A stretch of 44,569 nucleotides of DNA. Origin: Escherichia phage BEU35. Below are positions 7,277-44,286 of this stretch, piece after piece. The DNA is taken from the sequence record OM632668.1, one strand, 5' to 3'. The notes beneath the pieces were generated by a model that saw only the letters and a list, made by a program, of their open reading frames with translations, searched no databases and had not been told where the DNA came from. Positions within the stretch are counted from its first letter, which is position 1; each line of letters opens with the position of its first letter. Both the position numbers and the translations under genes were made by a program.

Positions 7277-8443
7277 ATGGCTACAACTCCTTTTAAGGGC
7301 GCGAATACCGCGCAATTCTATGTGGCGGAAACTACCCCGGGCGTAACACCGGCTAACCCTGTCTGGTCGCCGTTGCGTAACACTGGCGGTGTTCCTGCCG
7401 TAACCCGCGATGCGCTGACTTCCAACGAACTAGACGGCAGCCGTGAAACTACATCCATCCGAACCGGTAACAAACAGGTTAGCGGGGAGTACGCCATCGA
7501 ACTTAGCTCTCGTAGCCAGGATGATTTCCTTGCGGGAGCGATGACTTCTACGTGGCAAGCTGGGGTAGAGATTACTGGCGCCGAAATTACGGTCGCCCCA
7601 GCAGGTAAAACATTCACCCGCGCTGCCGGTAGCTTCATTACTGACAGTGTAGAAGTTGGCGACCTTATTGCGTTCACCGACTTAACCGGCGACAACGCAA
7701 AACCGTTTATCGTGACCGCGGTTTCCGCTCTGGTAGTTACGGGCGCAGGTATTCAGCACACGCTGACAGCAGAGACAGTAACTACTGACGCAAAAACTGG
7801 CGACAAGCTGGAAACCGGTAACGCGTGTAAGACGTTCTCCATCCTGACGTGGTTCAAGGGCCAGTGTGGTAACCTGGACGCGTACATGCTGACCAAAGGT
7901 GTGGAAATCTCTGGCTTTACCGTAGAGCAGGCGGTTAACGCCATGGTCACCGGCAGCTTCCCGTTCATCGGCCTGAGTCAGGAGATTCTTACCGCGCCGC
8001 CGTCTGGCTCTGATTTCTCTCAGGTTACGTTCACCGATGAGCCGTTCTCGTCGGTAGATGTGTCGGTGTTCGATGGCTCCACGCCGTTGCGTTGCGATAC
8101 TCTCACCATCACCAACGACAACGGAGCTTCCGCGCAGTTCGAACTCGGTAACAGTAGCGTGGCGTTCGTCGAACGTGGACGCGCAGCTAACACATTCTCT
8201 ATCTCTGGCAAGCTGTACGACATGGCGATGATTCAGAAGTTTATCAACGAGCAGCAGGTAGAGATTAACTCTATTCTGGCAGGGGTAAACGGGGCTATGT
8301 CTTTCAGTTTGAAACGTGCAGAGCTTACGGCGGTTACACCTGAGATTGGTGGGCCTGAGTCAATCACTCAGTCCATTGAAGGCCAGGCTACCGGCAATCA
8401 GTACCAGTCGTCTATCGTAATTCAACGTATCACCTACGCATAA
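7277..8443 (+). CDS. major tail (tube) protein
   Basis: AAGAGG RBS 7 nt upstream of ATG; 389 aa; followed by strong terminator; position upstream of chaperone/tape measure. Confidence 0.65.
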   Translation: MATTPFKGANTAQFYVAETTPGVTPANPVWSPLRNTGGVPAVTRDALTSNELDGSRETTSIRTGNKQVSGEYAIELSSRSQDDFLAGAMTSTWQAGVEITGAEITVAPAGKTFTRAAGSFITDSVEVGDLIAFTDLTGDNAKPFIVTAVSALVVTGAGIQHTLTAETVTTDAKTGDKLETGNACKTFSILTWFKGQCGNLDAYMLTKGVEISGFTVEQAVNAMVTGSFPFIGLSQEILTAPPSGSDFSQVTFTDEPFSSVDVSVFDGSTPLRCDTLTITNDNGASAQFELGNSSVAFVERGRAANTFSISGKLYDMAMIQKFINEQQVEINSILAGVNGAMSFSLKRAELTAVTPEIGGPESITQSIEGQATGNQYQSSIVIQRITYA

Positions 8444-28026: not shown

Positions 28027-28055
28027 ACTATAATAGCTAACTATTCAGGTGTCAA
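28027..28055 (-). promoter_or_regulatory. sigma70-like promoter (TTGACA-N17-TATAGT)
   Basis: Read on minus strand: ttgaca cctgaatagttagctat tatagt. Confidence 0.5.
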
Positions 28056-28244
28056 ATAAAATTTTGCAATAGGGATTATGTTCTCGAAATTAAGCATATT
28101 GGCCGGTTCGAACTCATCCTCTACAGGGTAGTATCGCATCATGGTACCGTTCAAGAACGTGAACGATTCCGAGTGTAGATACCCATCCCAGTGCCATACC
28201 ATCAAAAAATCTTTATCAGTCGGCATTTCATTTACTTGAATCAT
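28041..28244 (-). CDS. small hypothetical protein
   Basis: GGAGGA RBS 6 nt upstream; ATGA overlap with the exonuclease stop. Confidence 0.4.
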   Translation of the reverse strand: MIQVNEMPTDKDFLMVWHWDGYLHSESFTFLNGTMMRYYPVEDEFEPANMLNFENIIPIAKFYLTPE

Positions 28245-29482
28245 TCTAAATCCTCCTCTGTAACTTGATTCCACTCAGGACGTTTGTCATCCGCCGTTGC
28301 GACGCATGGCGCACCGGGCTTACGGGTAATGAAGTCTTTCAGTTCTTCTTCCGGTACAATTTTAACCGCTTCGGTCGGTGTCATAAGAACTACCTTTTGC
28401 AGCATAGTACCGTACTTCTCGAATACTGCATCGGTATCTTTCCACGCACGATTACCCGGGCGTCCTTCAACCAGTTTATACCCCGGCACTTTCTTACCGG
28501 AATGTAACGCAGCAGCCATAGCTTTCTCAACCTTGTCGATGTGCTGGCGCAACAACGGCAACTTCTCATACTCAGCTACGAGTTGCTCTGGCGTAAGCTC
28601 AAGTGCAAAGTCGTCCTCCAGTTCTTCCGCCAGCCCCGCGTTAACGGTTTTTGTACGCGCTGCGCATTGTTCAGAGAACCGACACCACTGACAACCATCT
28701 ACCGACGGCTTGAAGTCCGACGCTTTCAGGTTCTTTTTACCCCGGAAATAGGCATCAAGAGCCAACAGCGCCCGTTTCTGTGCAAACTTAGCGAACAGTT
28801 CCAGACCTTCAACCGAGATGTCCCACTCCGATGCACCGCCAGCGTACGGCTGGAAGATGACCAGTCGAACGGTTGTTATGCTATAACGTCTCTTGAGTCG
28901 GCGATAAACGCCGAGAGCATAAAGCATAAGCTGCTTGTTTTCTTTCGCTTCGACACGATGCCGCCCGGTTTTCAGGTCGCAGATGATAAGCATGTGTTCG
29001 TCGGTGTTAGCCAGTTCCTGTATGGCAACAAGGTCAGCAGTTCCGAACGTCTCAACGCCTTCATACCCCGGATGCAATACCTCAGTAAGATTAACACGCA
29101 TTTCCAGCTTGGCGTAAGTCGCTATATCGATAATCGCCTTGCAGTAGTCGGTGTACTTGCGCACCTGCTCAATCATGTCCGCCGTAATCAGTACCGCGCC
29201 TTTCATCGGGCTGATTAGTGCCTTAATCTGGCCTTTGCCTTCATCCAGCACGTAAGCACCGACTTCACGCTCTAACGGCAGCGCAGTTCCGCGAATATAA
29301 GCGTTGAGATGGACCTCAGCTATGGTGTGCATTGCCGTGCCTAATACAGCGGCTTTACCTGACGTGTTAGGGATATCTTTTTCACAGGCCAGTGATGCCG
29401 CGCAACTTAGCCACTTTTTAGCCCCTGACGGCGACAGTAAGGCATGTACATCGTTATTGCCGCCGCGTTCTTTAAGAATCAT
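28241..29482 (-). CDS. PD-(D/E)xK exonuclease, Cas4/DUF2800-like, with C-terminal Cys cluster
   Basis: RecB-nuclease-like core with CQWCRFSEQC; ends in TEEDLE. Confidence 0.65.
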   Translation of the reverse strand: MILKERGGNNDVHALLSPSGAKKWLSCAASLACEKDIPNTSGKAAVLGTAMHTIAEVHLNAYIRGTALPLEREVGAYVLDEGKGQIKALISPMKGAVLITADMIEQVRKYTDYCKAIIDIATYAKLEMRVNLTEVLHPGYEGVETFGTADLVAIQELANTDEHMLIICDLKTGRHRVEAKENKQLMLYALGVYRRLKRRYSITTVRLVIFQPYAGGASEWDISVEGLELFAKFAQKRALLALDAYFRGKKNLKASDFKPSVDGCQWCRFSEQCAARTKTVNAGLAEELEDDFALELTPEQLVAEYEKLPLLRQHIDKVEKAMAAALHSGKKVPGYKLVEGRPGNRAWKDTDAVFEKYGTMLQKVVLMTPTEAVKIVPEEELKDFITRKPGAPCVATADDKRPEWNQVTEEDLE

Positions 29483-30919: not shown

Positions 30920-30949
30920 ACTATAATAGCGAACTATTCATGATGTCAA
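30920..30949 (-). promoter_or_regulatory. sigma70-like promoter (TTGACA-N18-TATAGT) for leftward early operon
   Basis: Read on minus strand: ttgaca tcatgaatagttcgctat tatagt. Confidence 0.5.
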
Positions 30950-42315: not shown

Positions 42316-44286
42316 ATGCTATTAACTTTAGTACCACAGGGTTTAACTATGAGCTTACTTACATCCCTCATCAGCCATCAGATATGGCTGCAACGCACCG
42401 CATCCGGTGAGGTGAAAGACCTCACACCGTTCATTCAGGAGATGCGGGATGAAATTAAACGGCAGGTGCTGTTATTCGGTGACGACGGTCGTAGCACTGC
42501 GCGACTGAATAAATTGTTACGCGACCTTGAGGAAGCACTAACCGGACTTACGGGCGACTGGCAGACAAAGCTGACAGAAGACCTTAAGGAACTGGCGGCG
42601 TATGAGGCCGAGTGGAACGTAAAGACTCTGACCGCCAACGTTAACGCGGAATTTGTTACCCCTACCGCGGAACAGGTGTGGGCCGCTGCCGAGTTTCAGC
42701 CATTATCGTTGAGTGACAAGCCCGTTGATTTCACTAAGCTGATGGACGGCTGGGGTGAAACAGAAGTCGCGCGCCTGGTAACCGGCGTTAAGATGGGCTT
42801 TGTACAAGGCCAAACCACACGGCAGATTGTTAAGAACGTCGTAGGCGCTGGCGGACTGGCGGACATCTCTGAGCGTAACGCGGCCACCGTAATCCGTACT
42901 GCACTGTCTCACGTATCCAACGAAGCACGTAACGAGACGTACCGCCAGAACGACGACATCATCGAGAAATATGAGTGGGTGTCTACGCTGGACAGCCGTA
43001 CCAGTACAACGTGTTTCACGGCTGAAACAGAATTAGCGCCCATCGCGGGGATGGACGCGGTAATGCGCGGACTCTATTCAGGAAAAATCTTTACCATCGA
43101 ACTTTCCAACGGCGAGAAGTTCAGTGGCACCCCGAAACACCCTGTACTCACGCAATACGGATGGACTCCGCTTGATGAACTCGATCCAACTAAGCATGTC
43201 TTGTATACCACTGTTGACAAAGTGACTGTGCTCGAAACAGTGAAGAACATAAACATGCCAGCCAGAGCGGATTATATTTTTAATACGCTCGCTGATTTCC
43301 CCATCAGGAAAATGGTAAGCACGAGTCCCGCGGCAACAGATTTCTATGGCGATGGAGTGGGACTCAATGGCAAAATCGACATTGTACGGGCCGATTGCAA
43401 ACTGCGGAACTACGTCCACGCCAGCGGAATTAAACAATTCAAAAGCGAGGGTTTCAGTCTTATTCATAGCGCCGCTTTGCTGTCGGACGATAGCTCTGGC
43501 GATTTTCTCCTCCGGGGTGAATGTCCTGTGAGTGTGCCCGCGCTTAGCGAGGCCAAGTGTTTTGACCATAGAATAGAAAACTGTTTTGCTTACTTGGGTC
43601 CTTCTTATGCACTCAATAGGCGGGACGCCGGACTCGAACAATTCTATAGCCCTTTTTTGATTCAAAATGGTGTCGTTAGAAACCCAACCACGGGGTCGAT
43701 CATGCATGAGTCCGAGCTTCTTGAGAAATGTTGTTACCGTGGTGGTAGTGACGCCGTAATTCTTGGCTATGATGCTGGCGGGAGTGCCATCTCGGTACAA
43801 AGAGCAAATATCATCCGCATAAGCGTCGAGTTTAGAACGTGCCATGTTTATACCCTCTCTAGTAGTCAAGGATATTATACAGCAGGTAGTGCGATAGTCA
43901 AGAATTGCAGGGCCAGAGACGGAATGACGTGGGAAATCGGTAAAGGTCCGATGCCACCAGCCCATCCTAATTGCCGAAGTACCACTGCACCGGTAATCAG
44001 TTCAGAGTTCGACTTCCTTGATAAAGGCGCAAAACGTGCGGCTAAGGGTGCGGACGGCGGTACTCAGGTAAGCGCAGACACCACTTACTACGAGTTCCTT
44101 AAACAACAACCGGCGTGGTTTCAGGACCAGGCCCTCGGCCCGGTGCGAGGTAAGATTTTCCGTAACAGCGGTATATCGCCGGAAGAGTTTCGCGTAATAT
44201 CTGTAGATGGTTTCGGGAATCCGCTCACGCTTAAGCAGATGGCGGAACTCGATAAACGTGTTGCTGATTATCTGAAAGGGGAATAA
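42316..44286 (+). CDS. Mu F / SPP1 gp7-type head morphogenesis protein precursor with in-frame intein (alternative start ATG 42349)
   Basis: Extein DSRTSTT...CRARDGMTWEIGKGPMPPAHPNCRS matches Mu-F-type conserved core; interrupted by 298 codons with intein blocks. Confidence 0.7.
   Translation: MLLTLVPQGLTMSLLTSLISHQIWLQRTASGEVKDLTPFIQEMRDEIKRQVLLFGDDGRSTARLNKLLRDLEEALTGLTGDWQTKLTEDLKELAAYEAEWNVKTLTANVNAEFVTPTAEQVWAAAEFQPLSLSDKPVDFTKLMDGWGETEVARLVTGVKMGFVQGQTTRQIVKNVVGAGGLADISERNAATVIRTALSHVSNEARNETYRQNDDIIEKYEWVSTLDSRTSTTCFTAETELAPIAGMDAVMRGLYSGKIFTIELSNGEKFSGTPKHPVLTQYGWTPLDELDPTKHVLYTTVDKVTVLETVKNINMPARADYIFNTLADFPIRKMVSTSPAATDFYGDGVGLNGKIDIVRADCKLRNYVHASGIKQFKSEGFSLIHSAALLSDDSSGDFLLRGECPVSVPALSEAKCFDHRIENCFAYLGPSYALNRRDAGLEQFYSPFLIQNGVVRNPTTGSIMHESELLEKCCYRGGSDAVILGYDAGGSAISVQRANIIRISVEFRTCHVYTLSSSQGYYTAGSAIVKNCRARDGMTWEIGKGPMPPAHPNCRSTTAPVISSEFDFLDKGAKRAAKGADGGTQVSADTTYYEFLKQQPAWFQDQALGPVRGKIFRNSGISPEEFRVISVDGFGNPLTLKQMAELDKRVADYLKGE
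43012..43905 (+). other. intein (298 codons, Cys1 to Asn298, +1 Cys) within the head morphogenesis gene
   Basis: Starts CFTAETEL; block B-like TPKHPVLTQYGWTPLDEL; ends VYTLSSSQGYYTAGSAIVKN followed by Cys. Confidence 0.65.
43078..43845 (-). CDS. opposite-strand ORF nested in the intein: tandem HTH plus Vsr/DUF559-like nuclease-like region; candidate homing endonuclease (ORF track extends to 43965)
   Basis: AGAGAGG RBS before ATG 43845; HTH-like TPASIIAKNYGVTTTTVTTFLKKLGL and VPPIECIRRTQVSKTVFYSMVKTLGL; PYNVDFAIESHSIAIEI ... RSGWHVYVL. Confidence 0.45.
   Translation of the reverse strand: MARSKLDAYADDICSLYRDGTPASIIAKNYGVTTTTVTTFLKKLGLMHDRPRGWVSNDTILNQKRAIELFESGVPPIECIRRTQVSKTVFYSMVKTLGLAKRGHTHRTFTPEEKIARAIVRQQSGAMNKTETLAFELFNSAGVDVVPQFAIGPYNVDFAIESHSIAIEICCRGTRAYHFPDGEISERIKNIIRSGWHVYVLHCFEHSHFVNSGIQDMLSWIEFIKRSPSVLREYRVFRGATELLAVGKFDGKDFS

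Follow-up and report, generated by a model that had tools for sequence, protein, structure and literature searches.

The window considered here is a 44,569-nt stretch of DNA from Escherichia phage BEU35 (sequence record OM632668.1), a Kagunavirus (Guernseyvirinae) that infects E. coli, and the element in question is an intein lodged in a head gene of this phage together with a long open reading frame (ORF) on the strand opposite to it. The host gene (42316..44286, plus strand; 656 codons including the intein) codes for a MuF-like minor head (head-morphogenesis) protein, which matches the Pfam Phage_Mu_F family above its curated cutoff (7.9e-09, 36.7 bits). Megablast recovers the full-length, intein-bearing gene in three records, namely fEg-Eco06 and vB-Eco-KMB36, where it is annotated as a 'minor head protein with inserted intein', and Ec1-ASingh, where it is unannotated; about 250 further records align to the two flanks only. 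In phage BEU33, both flanks, i.e., the exteins, are 100% identical to those of the window and an in-frame insertion of 897 nt is missing, a gap made up of an intein of 298 codons and a one-codon length polymorphism of the extein. The empty BEU33 allele and the boundary codons delimit a class 1 intein at 43012..43905 (plus strand), which begins with Cys1 (TGT, 43012), ends with Asn298 (AAT, 43903-43905) and is followed by Cys+1 (TGC, 43906-43908). Lying wholly within it on the minus strand is a predicted nuclease gene of 255 codons and a TGA stop (43080-43078) at 43078..43845, with 768 of the 894 intein bases being read both ways.

All four splicing blocks can be recognized in the plus-strand sequence of the intein: block A (CFTAETELAP, 43012..43041), block B (GTPKHPVLT, with the TxxH signature, 43126..43152), block F (CHVYTLSS, 43840..43863, with its His codon CAT at 43843-43845) and block G (AGSAIVKN, 43882..43905, with Lys as the penultimate residue). 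These could be aligned with the equivalent blocks of 52 related inteins. Most relatives have His-Asn as the final pair, and some have Ser-Asn or Arg-Asn. The match of the window intein to the Pfam Intein_splicing family is below the curated cutoff (E=1.9e-4, 21.7 against 35.8 bits). We infer that the intein undergoes protein splicing from its presence in plaque-forming phages with a single MuF gene. The extein varies in length right at the insertion point, reading DSRTST-C in BEU33, DSRTSTI-C in KMB35 and DSRTSTT-[intein]-C in the window (43003-43011). The one additional Thr codon where the N-extein meets the intein was considered as an anomaly and rejected, being an ordinary polymorphism among empty alleles, and this length variation may bear on the target tolerance of the nuclease. 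A 238-residue protein sourced from NCBI joins an unrelated N-terminal part to the last 100 residues of the window intein and the CRARDG extein, and is probably an assembly or gene-call chimera.

The minus-strand frame is open over 43078..43965, giving 295 codons from an ATG at 43965 and 255 from the ATG at 43845, just as the first-pass annotation of this DNA had reported. Its register is exactly codon-aligned with that of the intein: position 2 of each antisense codon faces position 2 of a sense codon, and the sense codons TTA, CTA and TCA are read as stops in the antisense frame and vice versa. These three codons account for 2.96% of the codons in the other long ORFs of the window, and a codon-frequency model based on this yields an expectation of ~0.04 chance runs of at least 295 codons free of them per window. 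The next longest antisense-open runs in the codon-aligned frame, of 236 codons in a minus-strand gene (28244-29482) and of 225 codons in a plus-strand gene (7277-8440), are consistent with chance at the codon usage of the window. The open antisense frame by itself is only modestly improbable, and is suggestive rather than decisive. The AT-richness of the intein centre, which the first-pass annotation had counted against a chance frame, was in the direction proposed and proved slight in extent (GC content of 0.49 versus 0.53 in the exteins).

Comparisons with related loci are more informative. A tblastn search with the 255-residue translation detected matches of ~25% identity inside the MuF/head genes of several groups of phages, including those of Gordonia, Aggregatibacter/Haemophilus, Idiomarinaceae, Vibrio and Salmonella, and each match inspected lies on the strand opposite to the annotated gene, where there is an open frame of 250-340 codons. 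A second tblastn search extended this to 119 cultured-phage records, among them phages of Pseudomonas, Klebsiella, Pantoea, Cronobacter and Mycobacterium. Three metagenomic homologues (53%, 45% and 26% identity) reside on 1-kb contigs, the opposite strand of which is a continuous MuF-intein frame. Further, a peptide-pattern scan of IMG/VR returned 234 relatives, of which 80 were fetched and combined with two from an earlier scan to give 82 loci. In all 82 the gene is embedded in a MuF intein in the same orientation and register, and the codon-aligned opposite frame is stop-free, within an ORF of 277-1155 residues; this conservation is what makes the case for a real gene decisive. Pfam searches with the opposite-frame host ORFs identified Intein_splicing in 48 of 53 (at E <= 1e-3, best 1.8e-12) and Phage_Mu_F in 25 of 53, and most of these inteins end in ...GHVYNL(E/Q)T...THN, directly followed by CRC. 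Searched with a profile, a set of 1.84 billion representative proteins yielded 303 cluster representatives at E <= 1e-30. No PHROG family covers the antisense nuclease family, and the gene is either uncalled or called only as fragments in the inspected annotations of fEg-Eco06, KMB36, Snoke, vB_StyS-sam, Aaphi23 and Fosterous.

Several of these loci merit separate mention. In Salmonella phage vB_StyS-sam (NC_073177.1), two short 'hypothetical proteins' have been called inside the MuF gene (1509-1757, minus; 1685-2086, plus), and its ORF43 covers part of the antisense nuclease frame. The IMG/VR relative L096 (2195-3898) has a stop inside the nuclease-frame match with the intein frame remaining open, and its nuclease may be decaying. 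A metagenome-derived viral contig of 45,080 nt (IMGVR_UViG_3300045988_006100) encodes a nuclease 100% identical to that of the window, and is likely from this phage itself or from one almost identical to it. The host ORFs that carry the intein are in some cases very long (~1000-1155 residues), and Pfam searches across the host set additionally find portal, ADP-ribosyltransferase, NUDIX, metallopeptidase and VG15 domains; therefore, MuF fusion proteins have been invaded too.

The AlphaFold2 (AF2) model of the 255-residue product has a pLDDT score of 74, obtained from an alignment of four sequences only. It comprises two helix-turn-helix (HTH) modules followed by an alpha/beta domain. The first module (residues 7-43; 43717..43827, minus strand) has helices at residues 7-18, 23-29 and 34-43 and matches the Pfam HTH_7 family (1.6e-4), and the second (residues 57-96; 43558..43677, minus), with helices at 57-71, 76-83 and 87-96, is corroborated by profile and Pfam searches. 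The C-terminal domain (residues 129-250; 43096..43461, minus) resembles the Vsr, DUF559 and MTES_1575 nucleases in structure, profile and Pfam comparisons. Foldseek retrieved the catalytic domain of I-Bth0305I (3r3p; probability 1.00, target TM-score 0.64), Vsr (1cw0; 0.99, 0.52) and a DUF559 protein (3hrl; 0.95), and a profile of 50 family members matched the tandem-HTH structure 2lvs (2.6e-7), 3hrl (0.0023) and 3r3p (0.0046). Among these 50 homologues, 36 match REase_MTES_1575 (E <= 0.01, best 1.7e-7), four match DUF559, and many match HTH_7 (down to 7e-14), HTH_58 or HTH_23. The family alignment reveals three invariant residues of the minus-strand nuclease frame, E131 (43453-43455), D157 (43375-43377), which occurs in a YNxD context, and E168 (43342-43344), in an AxEx context; most members additionally conserve a GGxWH motif after E168, which is not seen in the subgroup containing the window protein. 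When the family is compared with the E-D-x-H-D motif, D157 falls opposite an Ala in 3r3p, in an alignment that is itself marginal (E = 0.0046). The HTH-HTH-nuclease organization proposed in the first-pass annotation is borne out by agreement between the AF2 topology, Foldseek, the family profile and Pfam, and these predictions support an architecture of two HTH modules and a Vsr/DUF559-like nuclease domain like that of I-Bth0305I.

Every base of the gene is also read by the intein, and the two readings of the same codons were compared to see on which frame selection acts. Between the window and the related locus L010, the intein centre is 48% identical in the antisense frame and 26% in the sense frame over the same codon columns, with summed BLOSUM62 scores of 443 and 150, respectively. 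When each frame is aligned locally and independently, the antisense frame scores higher in 36 of 36 pairs and the sense frame in none. Synonymous changes were assessed in 21 closer pairs (55-97% identity), which are not phylogenetically independent of each other: in the intein centre, 818 changes are synonymous in the antisense frame only as opposed to 228 in the sense frame only, and the single-nucleotide codon differences fall on antisense positions 1/2/3 in the proportions 324/104/917, i.e., with the wobble pattern of the antisense frame. The effect is large and consistent despite the non-independence of the pairs. Over the last ~55 codons of the nuclease, which face the N-terminal HINT region including block B, the corresponding figures are 125 changes synonymous in the antisense frame only and 130 in the sense frame only, with 149/18/140 differences at antisense positions 1/2/3, which indicates that this segment is probably constrained in both directions. 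Block B itself is the complement of nuclease residues 232-240 (REYRVFRGA). At shorter evolutionary distances, three of the four variable sites among the four Kagunavirus copies of the intein are silent in the antisense frame and change an amino acid in the sense frame; at longer ones, the subgroup formed by the window, L010 and L011 displays antisense-biased conservation at 45-53% identity.

Inspection of the sense frame provides the complementary picture. Its centre (43255-43800) matches zero Pfam families at E <= 1, and in the sense frames of four relatives Intein_splicing is the only Pfam match; these searches show no in-frame endonuclease domain between blocks B and F. As a query, the sense intein finds only two database relatives. 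AF2 models of sense residues 60-210 have a pLDDT of ~21-23 and no secondary structure, which, given the shallow alignment, carries little weight, and that of the sense intein as a whole (pLDDT 30, again from a shallow alignment) is uninformative. The LAGLIDADG-like traces that the first-pass annotation had suspected in the sense frame did not survive these searches. Indeed, the segment DFYGDGVGLNGKIDIV, which contains the DFYGDG trace, mirrors the motif YNVDFAIESHSIAIEI of the nuclease codon for codon. A sense-frame endonuclease is ruled out by the absence of Pfam matches taken together with this mirroring of the antisense active-site motif.

The signals that might drive the antisense gene are made of the codons of the splicing blocks. 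The motif ACTAGAGAGGGTATAAAC-ATG stands before the ATG at 43845, and the ribosome-binding site claimed there was recovered as a Shine-Dalgarno (SD) sequence GAGAGGG (43853..43859, minus strand), 7 nt before the ATG (GAGAGGG-N7-ATG), which is complementary to block F's Thr-Leu-Ser codons. The ATG itself is complementary to the His codon of that block, as it is in most homologues (xHVY[N/T]L[E/Q/S]), and the GAGG core of the SD in the homologues is the complement of the Leu and Glu/Ser codons following this His; an SD-like motif is found in 42 of the 50 homologues. The upstream ATG at 43965 was rejected as a start, for the aligned N-termini of the homologues, the SD and the promoter all indicate the ATG at 43845. 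A JGI gene call (P0001) began at an upstream ATG. Within the codons of blocks F to G there is a sigma-70-like promoter (TTGACT-16 nt-TATAAT, 11/12 matches; 43874..43901, minus), the -10 element of which ends 28 nt ahead of the ATG. It is one of just three sites with at least 11/12 matches in the entire window, and promoter-like sites are present at the same 28-nt spacing in four homologues (L010, L011, Aaphi23 and a Vibrio phage). The other two, TTGACA-18-TATAGT (30949..30920, minus) and TTGACA-17-TATAGT (28055..28027, minus), each also with 11/12 matches, are probably early promoters of a minus-strand gene block. A terminator-like hairpin with a T-poor tail lies 20 nt past the antisense stop (43036..43058, minus), likewise within the intein; it is weak and no conclusion rests on it. 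A complete unit running from promoter through stop to this hairpin is contained within the intein, and the promoter and SD, being matches to consensus sequences, would be its putative expression signals.

A full-length relative exists as an ordinary annotated gene in the Acinetobacter phage vB_AbaM_IME285 (AYP68850.1; MH853786.1 455..1348, plus), therefore the nuclease family also occurs outside inteins. Its product can be aligned end to end with the intein-embedded nucleases, inclusive of the C-terminal tail. It has 12 stops in the opposite frame, with 12 TTA, CTA or TCA codons among its 297, in contrast to 50 distinct embedded copies, which use none of them in 14,128 codons (1000 Leu and 970 Ser codons included). 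Hence, the avoidance of these codons is specific to the embedded copies. The free-standing gene is convergent to an intein-less MuF-like gene (1342-2118, minus) and overlaps its 3' end by 7 nt, which is the same relative orientation as that seen within the inteins, and the 'PMCKCR' motif of this MuF gene is the usual intein site. The copy in IME285 may be the ancestral state or one that has escaped.

The distribution of the intein within the Kagunaviruses and beyond is suggestive of mobility. The exteins of the window differ from those of KMB36 and Ec1-ASingh by 9.5-10.8%, as against 0.34-0.45% for the intein (Fisher p = 8e-27 and 6e-25, respectively), with the KMB36 intein having 3 differences in 894 nt; the full range of intein divergence is 0.1-0.45%, set beside ~10% in the exteins. 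In the exteins, the differences come no closer to the intein junctions than 28 nt upstream and 42 nt downstream. The nearly unchanged tract in these two phages (42985..43946), comprising the intein with 27 nt upstream and 41 nt downstream of it, is likely what homing transferred as a unit, its co-conversion tracts being short. The combination of a near-identical intein in divergent exteins and the empty BEU33 allele indicates what looks like the classic signature of recent homing. Two insertion sites ~20 codons apart in MuF are used by the same family of inteins and antisense nucleases. Site a, DSRTSxx^C(R/S)xxDG, is occupied in the window (43009-43011 / 43906), L010 and L011; site b, HPN^CR(C/S), is occupied in Jerseyviruses, Gordonia phages, Aaphi23 and most IMG/VR loci. 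Related Guernseyvirinae have either one or the other occupied, and the Kagunavirus Snoke, as judged from its annotated intein coordinates, probably has its intein at site b.

Taken together, homology, frame-specific selection, matches in fold and profile, and the homing signature make it highly probable that this is a mobile class 1 MuF intein, the homing endonuclease of which is a separate, codon-aligned antisense gene; in this much the proposal of the first-pass annotation holds, with the expression and nuclease activity of the product being presumed. Under this scheme, the sense precursor would be translated across the whole insert and the HINT blocks A, B, F and G would splice the intein out, with its central ~190 residues serving as a mere stop-free, poorly conserved linker in the sense frame. 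The promoter, SD and ATG inside the block G and F codons would drive synthesis of the 255-residue nuclease from the other strand. In a mixed infection, by analogy with I-Bth0305I and in keeping with the population pattern, the nuclease would cut a MuF allele that has no intein, near the ...DSRTSTT^CRARDG... codons. The break would then be repaired on the template of the intein-bearing genome, by which the intein would be copied over together with the antisense gene and with very short co-conversion tracts. The target site would be destroyed by this insertion. To maintain such dual coding, each gene would need to avoid just two Leu codons and one Ser codon.

Several observations sit uneasily with this scheme. 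The Foldseek E-values are weak (~1e-2) despite the high probabilities, and the window protein falls under the curated Pfam cutoffs both for HTH_7 (22.2 versus 23.8 bits) and for MTES_1575 (20.1 versus 38.2 bits); it is a distant relative of the REase_MTES_1575/DUF559 families of the PD-(D/E)xK clan and not a curated member of them. The window subgroup has 'IEICCRGT...' following E168 in place of the 'VEVFGGxWH' of the family, and the likely catalytic His is not obviously kept in its sequence. To these may be added the shared ancestry of the pairs used in the synonymous-change test, the missing penultimate His of block G in the window group, which has Lys-Asn instead, and the orientation of the antisense gene, which would be transcribed head-on into the late structural operon.

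One objection is that the antisense frame is open by chance, or that it is passively cast as a 'shadow' by a sense-frame domain that is conserved. Long spurious ORFs arise most readily in the codon-aligned antisense frame, the window has other sizable runs of this type (236 and 225 codons) against an expectation of ~0.04 for one as long as this, and conserved sense motifs are bound to be mirrored as conserved antisense ones, as block B TPxHPVLT is by EYRVxRG. However, the sense centre is without a domain match; conservation, BLOSUM scores and the wobble pattern there all track the antisense frame. Moreover, its product matches independent HTH and nuclease families along with solved structures, and has a free-standing homologue without an open opposite frame. 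We regard this explanation as refuted by these comparisons and give it almost no credence. A different objection concedes that the gene is real and holds that it has recently died, with the intein being inherited vertically or moved by general recombination. The divergent motif after E168, without GGxWH, would fit such a history, as would the stop in the nuclease frame of L096 and the apparent vertical inheritance of some groups of VSR-like inteins described in passages of a recent preprint (bioRxiv 10.1101/2025.01.02.630785). Yet all four Kagunavirus copies have kept the ORF intact, with three of the four polymorphisms silent in it, and the antisense-biased conservation extends to L010 and L011 at 45-53% identity. 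Also against it are a near-identical intein in exteins differing by ~10%, with sharp edges 28 and 42 nt from the junctions, and the empty allele with identical exteins in BEU33. A recently dead nuclease is hence considered unlikely.

Finally, the antisense protein could mainly be an HTH regulator or a nuclease of phage competition (marker exclusion), with the intein being mobilized in trans. Tandem HTH modules resemble those of regulators, resolvases and transposases, the free-standing homologue adjoins an intein-less MuF gene, and there is a general precedent in 'collaborative homing', in which free-standing homing nucleases mobilize nuclease-less introns. Against this, all 82 fetched loci have it within an intein, with one and the same host gene, orientation and register, its architecture is that of I-Bth0305I, a proven homing enzyme, and the transferred tract holds only the intein and the antisense gene. 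A function of this kind appears quite improbable, and a homing endonuclease acting on behalf of the intein that contains it is favoured.

Beyond the window, we incline, without strong conviction, to the view that the MuF intein and the antisense Vsr-like nuclease form an old, co-adapted dual-coding module, which might be the dominant type of MuF intein in phages of Proteobacteria and Actinobacteria. This is because the promoter, SD and ATG of the nuclease are built from splicing-block codons, because ~55 codons around block B appear to be selected in both directions at once, and because the module may derive from, or have given rise to, a free-standing gene convergent to the MuF 3' end. The start signals made of splicing-block codons, the dual selection at block B and the link to a free-standing gene do not figure in the passages of the Gosselin et al. 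preprint that bear on these inteins. Because an intein has to remain open in its own frame, a full-length functional gene antisense to it, with 768 bases read both ways, would be one of the clearest instances in nature of long antisense dual coding among bacteria or phages. It would also represent a division of splicing and homing between two proteins, supporting the view of intein origins in which splicing came first and the nuclease invaded later. Additionally, the arrangement offers an experimental handle: converting a Leu or Ser codon of the sense frame to TTA, CTA or TCA would leave the intein protein unaltered and put a stop into the nuclease. Catalogues of phage proteins may be missing most of a nuclease family whose members number in the hundreds. 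Kagunaviruses and Jerseyviruses are used in phage-therapy work, where it would matter if head genes were being recombined in mixed infections by a homing element that is active.

The first-pass annotation had taken the arrangement to be undescribed, and in this respect it has to be revised. Gosselin, Arsenault and Gogarten (bioRxiv 10.1101/2025.01.02.630785) report, in passages of their preprint, actinophage inteins with 'anti-sense VSR-like' nucleases, which they match to 1CW0 and 3R3P, and an in-frame region without recognizable structure; Vivi2 gp14, Fosterous gp12, Affeca gp15 and Angelicage gp15 appear in a supplementary table under 'minor capsid, MuF-like ... VSR -1 ORF'. The window ORF is related to these Gordonia phage ORFs by tblastn (Vivi2, 7e-12; Fosterous and Affeca, 4e-10; 24-27% identity over 91% of the length). 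As far as those passages go, the two share a MuF host gene, a class 1 intein, an opposite-strand ORF in the -1 register with a homologous product matching 1CW0/3R3P, and near-identical inteins in divergent exteins. They differ in that the window is from an enterobacterial phage and its site, DSRTSTT^CRARDG, is ~20 codons upstream of the HPN^CRC of the Gordonia phages. Further, relative to the account in these passages, in which the antisense VSR type is regarded as rare, the window ORF overlaps blocks B and F and has its start signals in F and G, and a single peptide pattern yielded 234 relatives from IMG/VR. What is new against this known kind is an enterobacterial member, a second MuF site, the wide spread of the family and a relative that is free-standing, along with the test for frame-specific selection and the placement of start signals within splicing blocks.

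Closer to the window, the head-gene inteins noted in Guernseyvirinae (Snoke, Salmonella Jerseyviruses and vB-Eco-KMB36; PMC11162368, PMC8425127) belong to the same intein family and gene, and a 900-bp intein is reported for KMB36 (PMC11162368/PMC8425127); the antisense gene is not described in the records of fEg-Eco06, KMB36, Snoke and vB_StyS-sam or in the passages on inteins of these papers. Antisense nucleases of the LAGLIDADG type have likewise been recognized in inteins such as that of Synechocystis DnaX (Gorbalenya 1998 and Gogarten 2002, as cited in passages of bioRxiv 10.1101/2025.01.02.630785). Going by that account, they too have a homing nuclease opposite an otherwise continuous intein frame, but of another superfamily (not Vsr/PD-(D/E)xK-like), in other hosts and with no homology to the window ORF. 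The gene in IME285 (AYP68850.1) differs in lying outside any intein, next to a MuF gene that is intein-less. The I-Bth0305I and 'EDxHD' Vsr-like enzymes carry a pair of HTH/NUMOD motifs at the N-terminus and a Vsr-like domain at the C-terminus (Dassa et al. 2009, PMC2677866; Taylor et al. 2011, PMC3239194), and I-Bth0305I resembles the window protein in domain order, in the fold and profile match to 3r3p and in being phage-borne. In contrast, they are encoded on the sense strand, either in a group I intron or free-standing between split-intein halves ('fractured genes') (PMC2677866, PMC3239194), and the similarity is marginal (E = 0.0046), with the window family being closer to the DUF559 pattern E...YNxD...VEV.GG.WH. 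Lastly, as in canonical inteins with an in-frame LAGLIDADG or HNH domain, such as PI-SceI, a HINT domain is split by an endonuclease-coding insert, there is homing into an empty allele, which for the window is the probable reading, and near-identical inteins occur in divergent exteins; however, in the canonical inteins one polypeptide holds both activities, whereas the predicted nuclease of the window is a separate protein encoded on the other strand.

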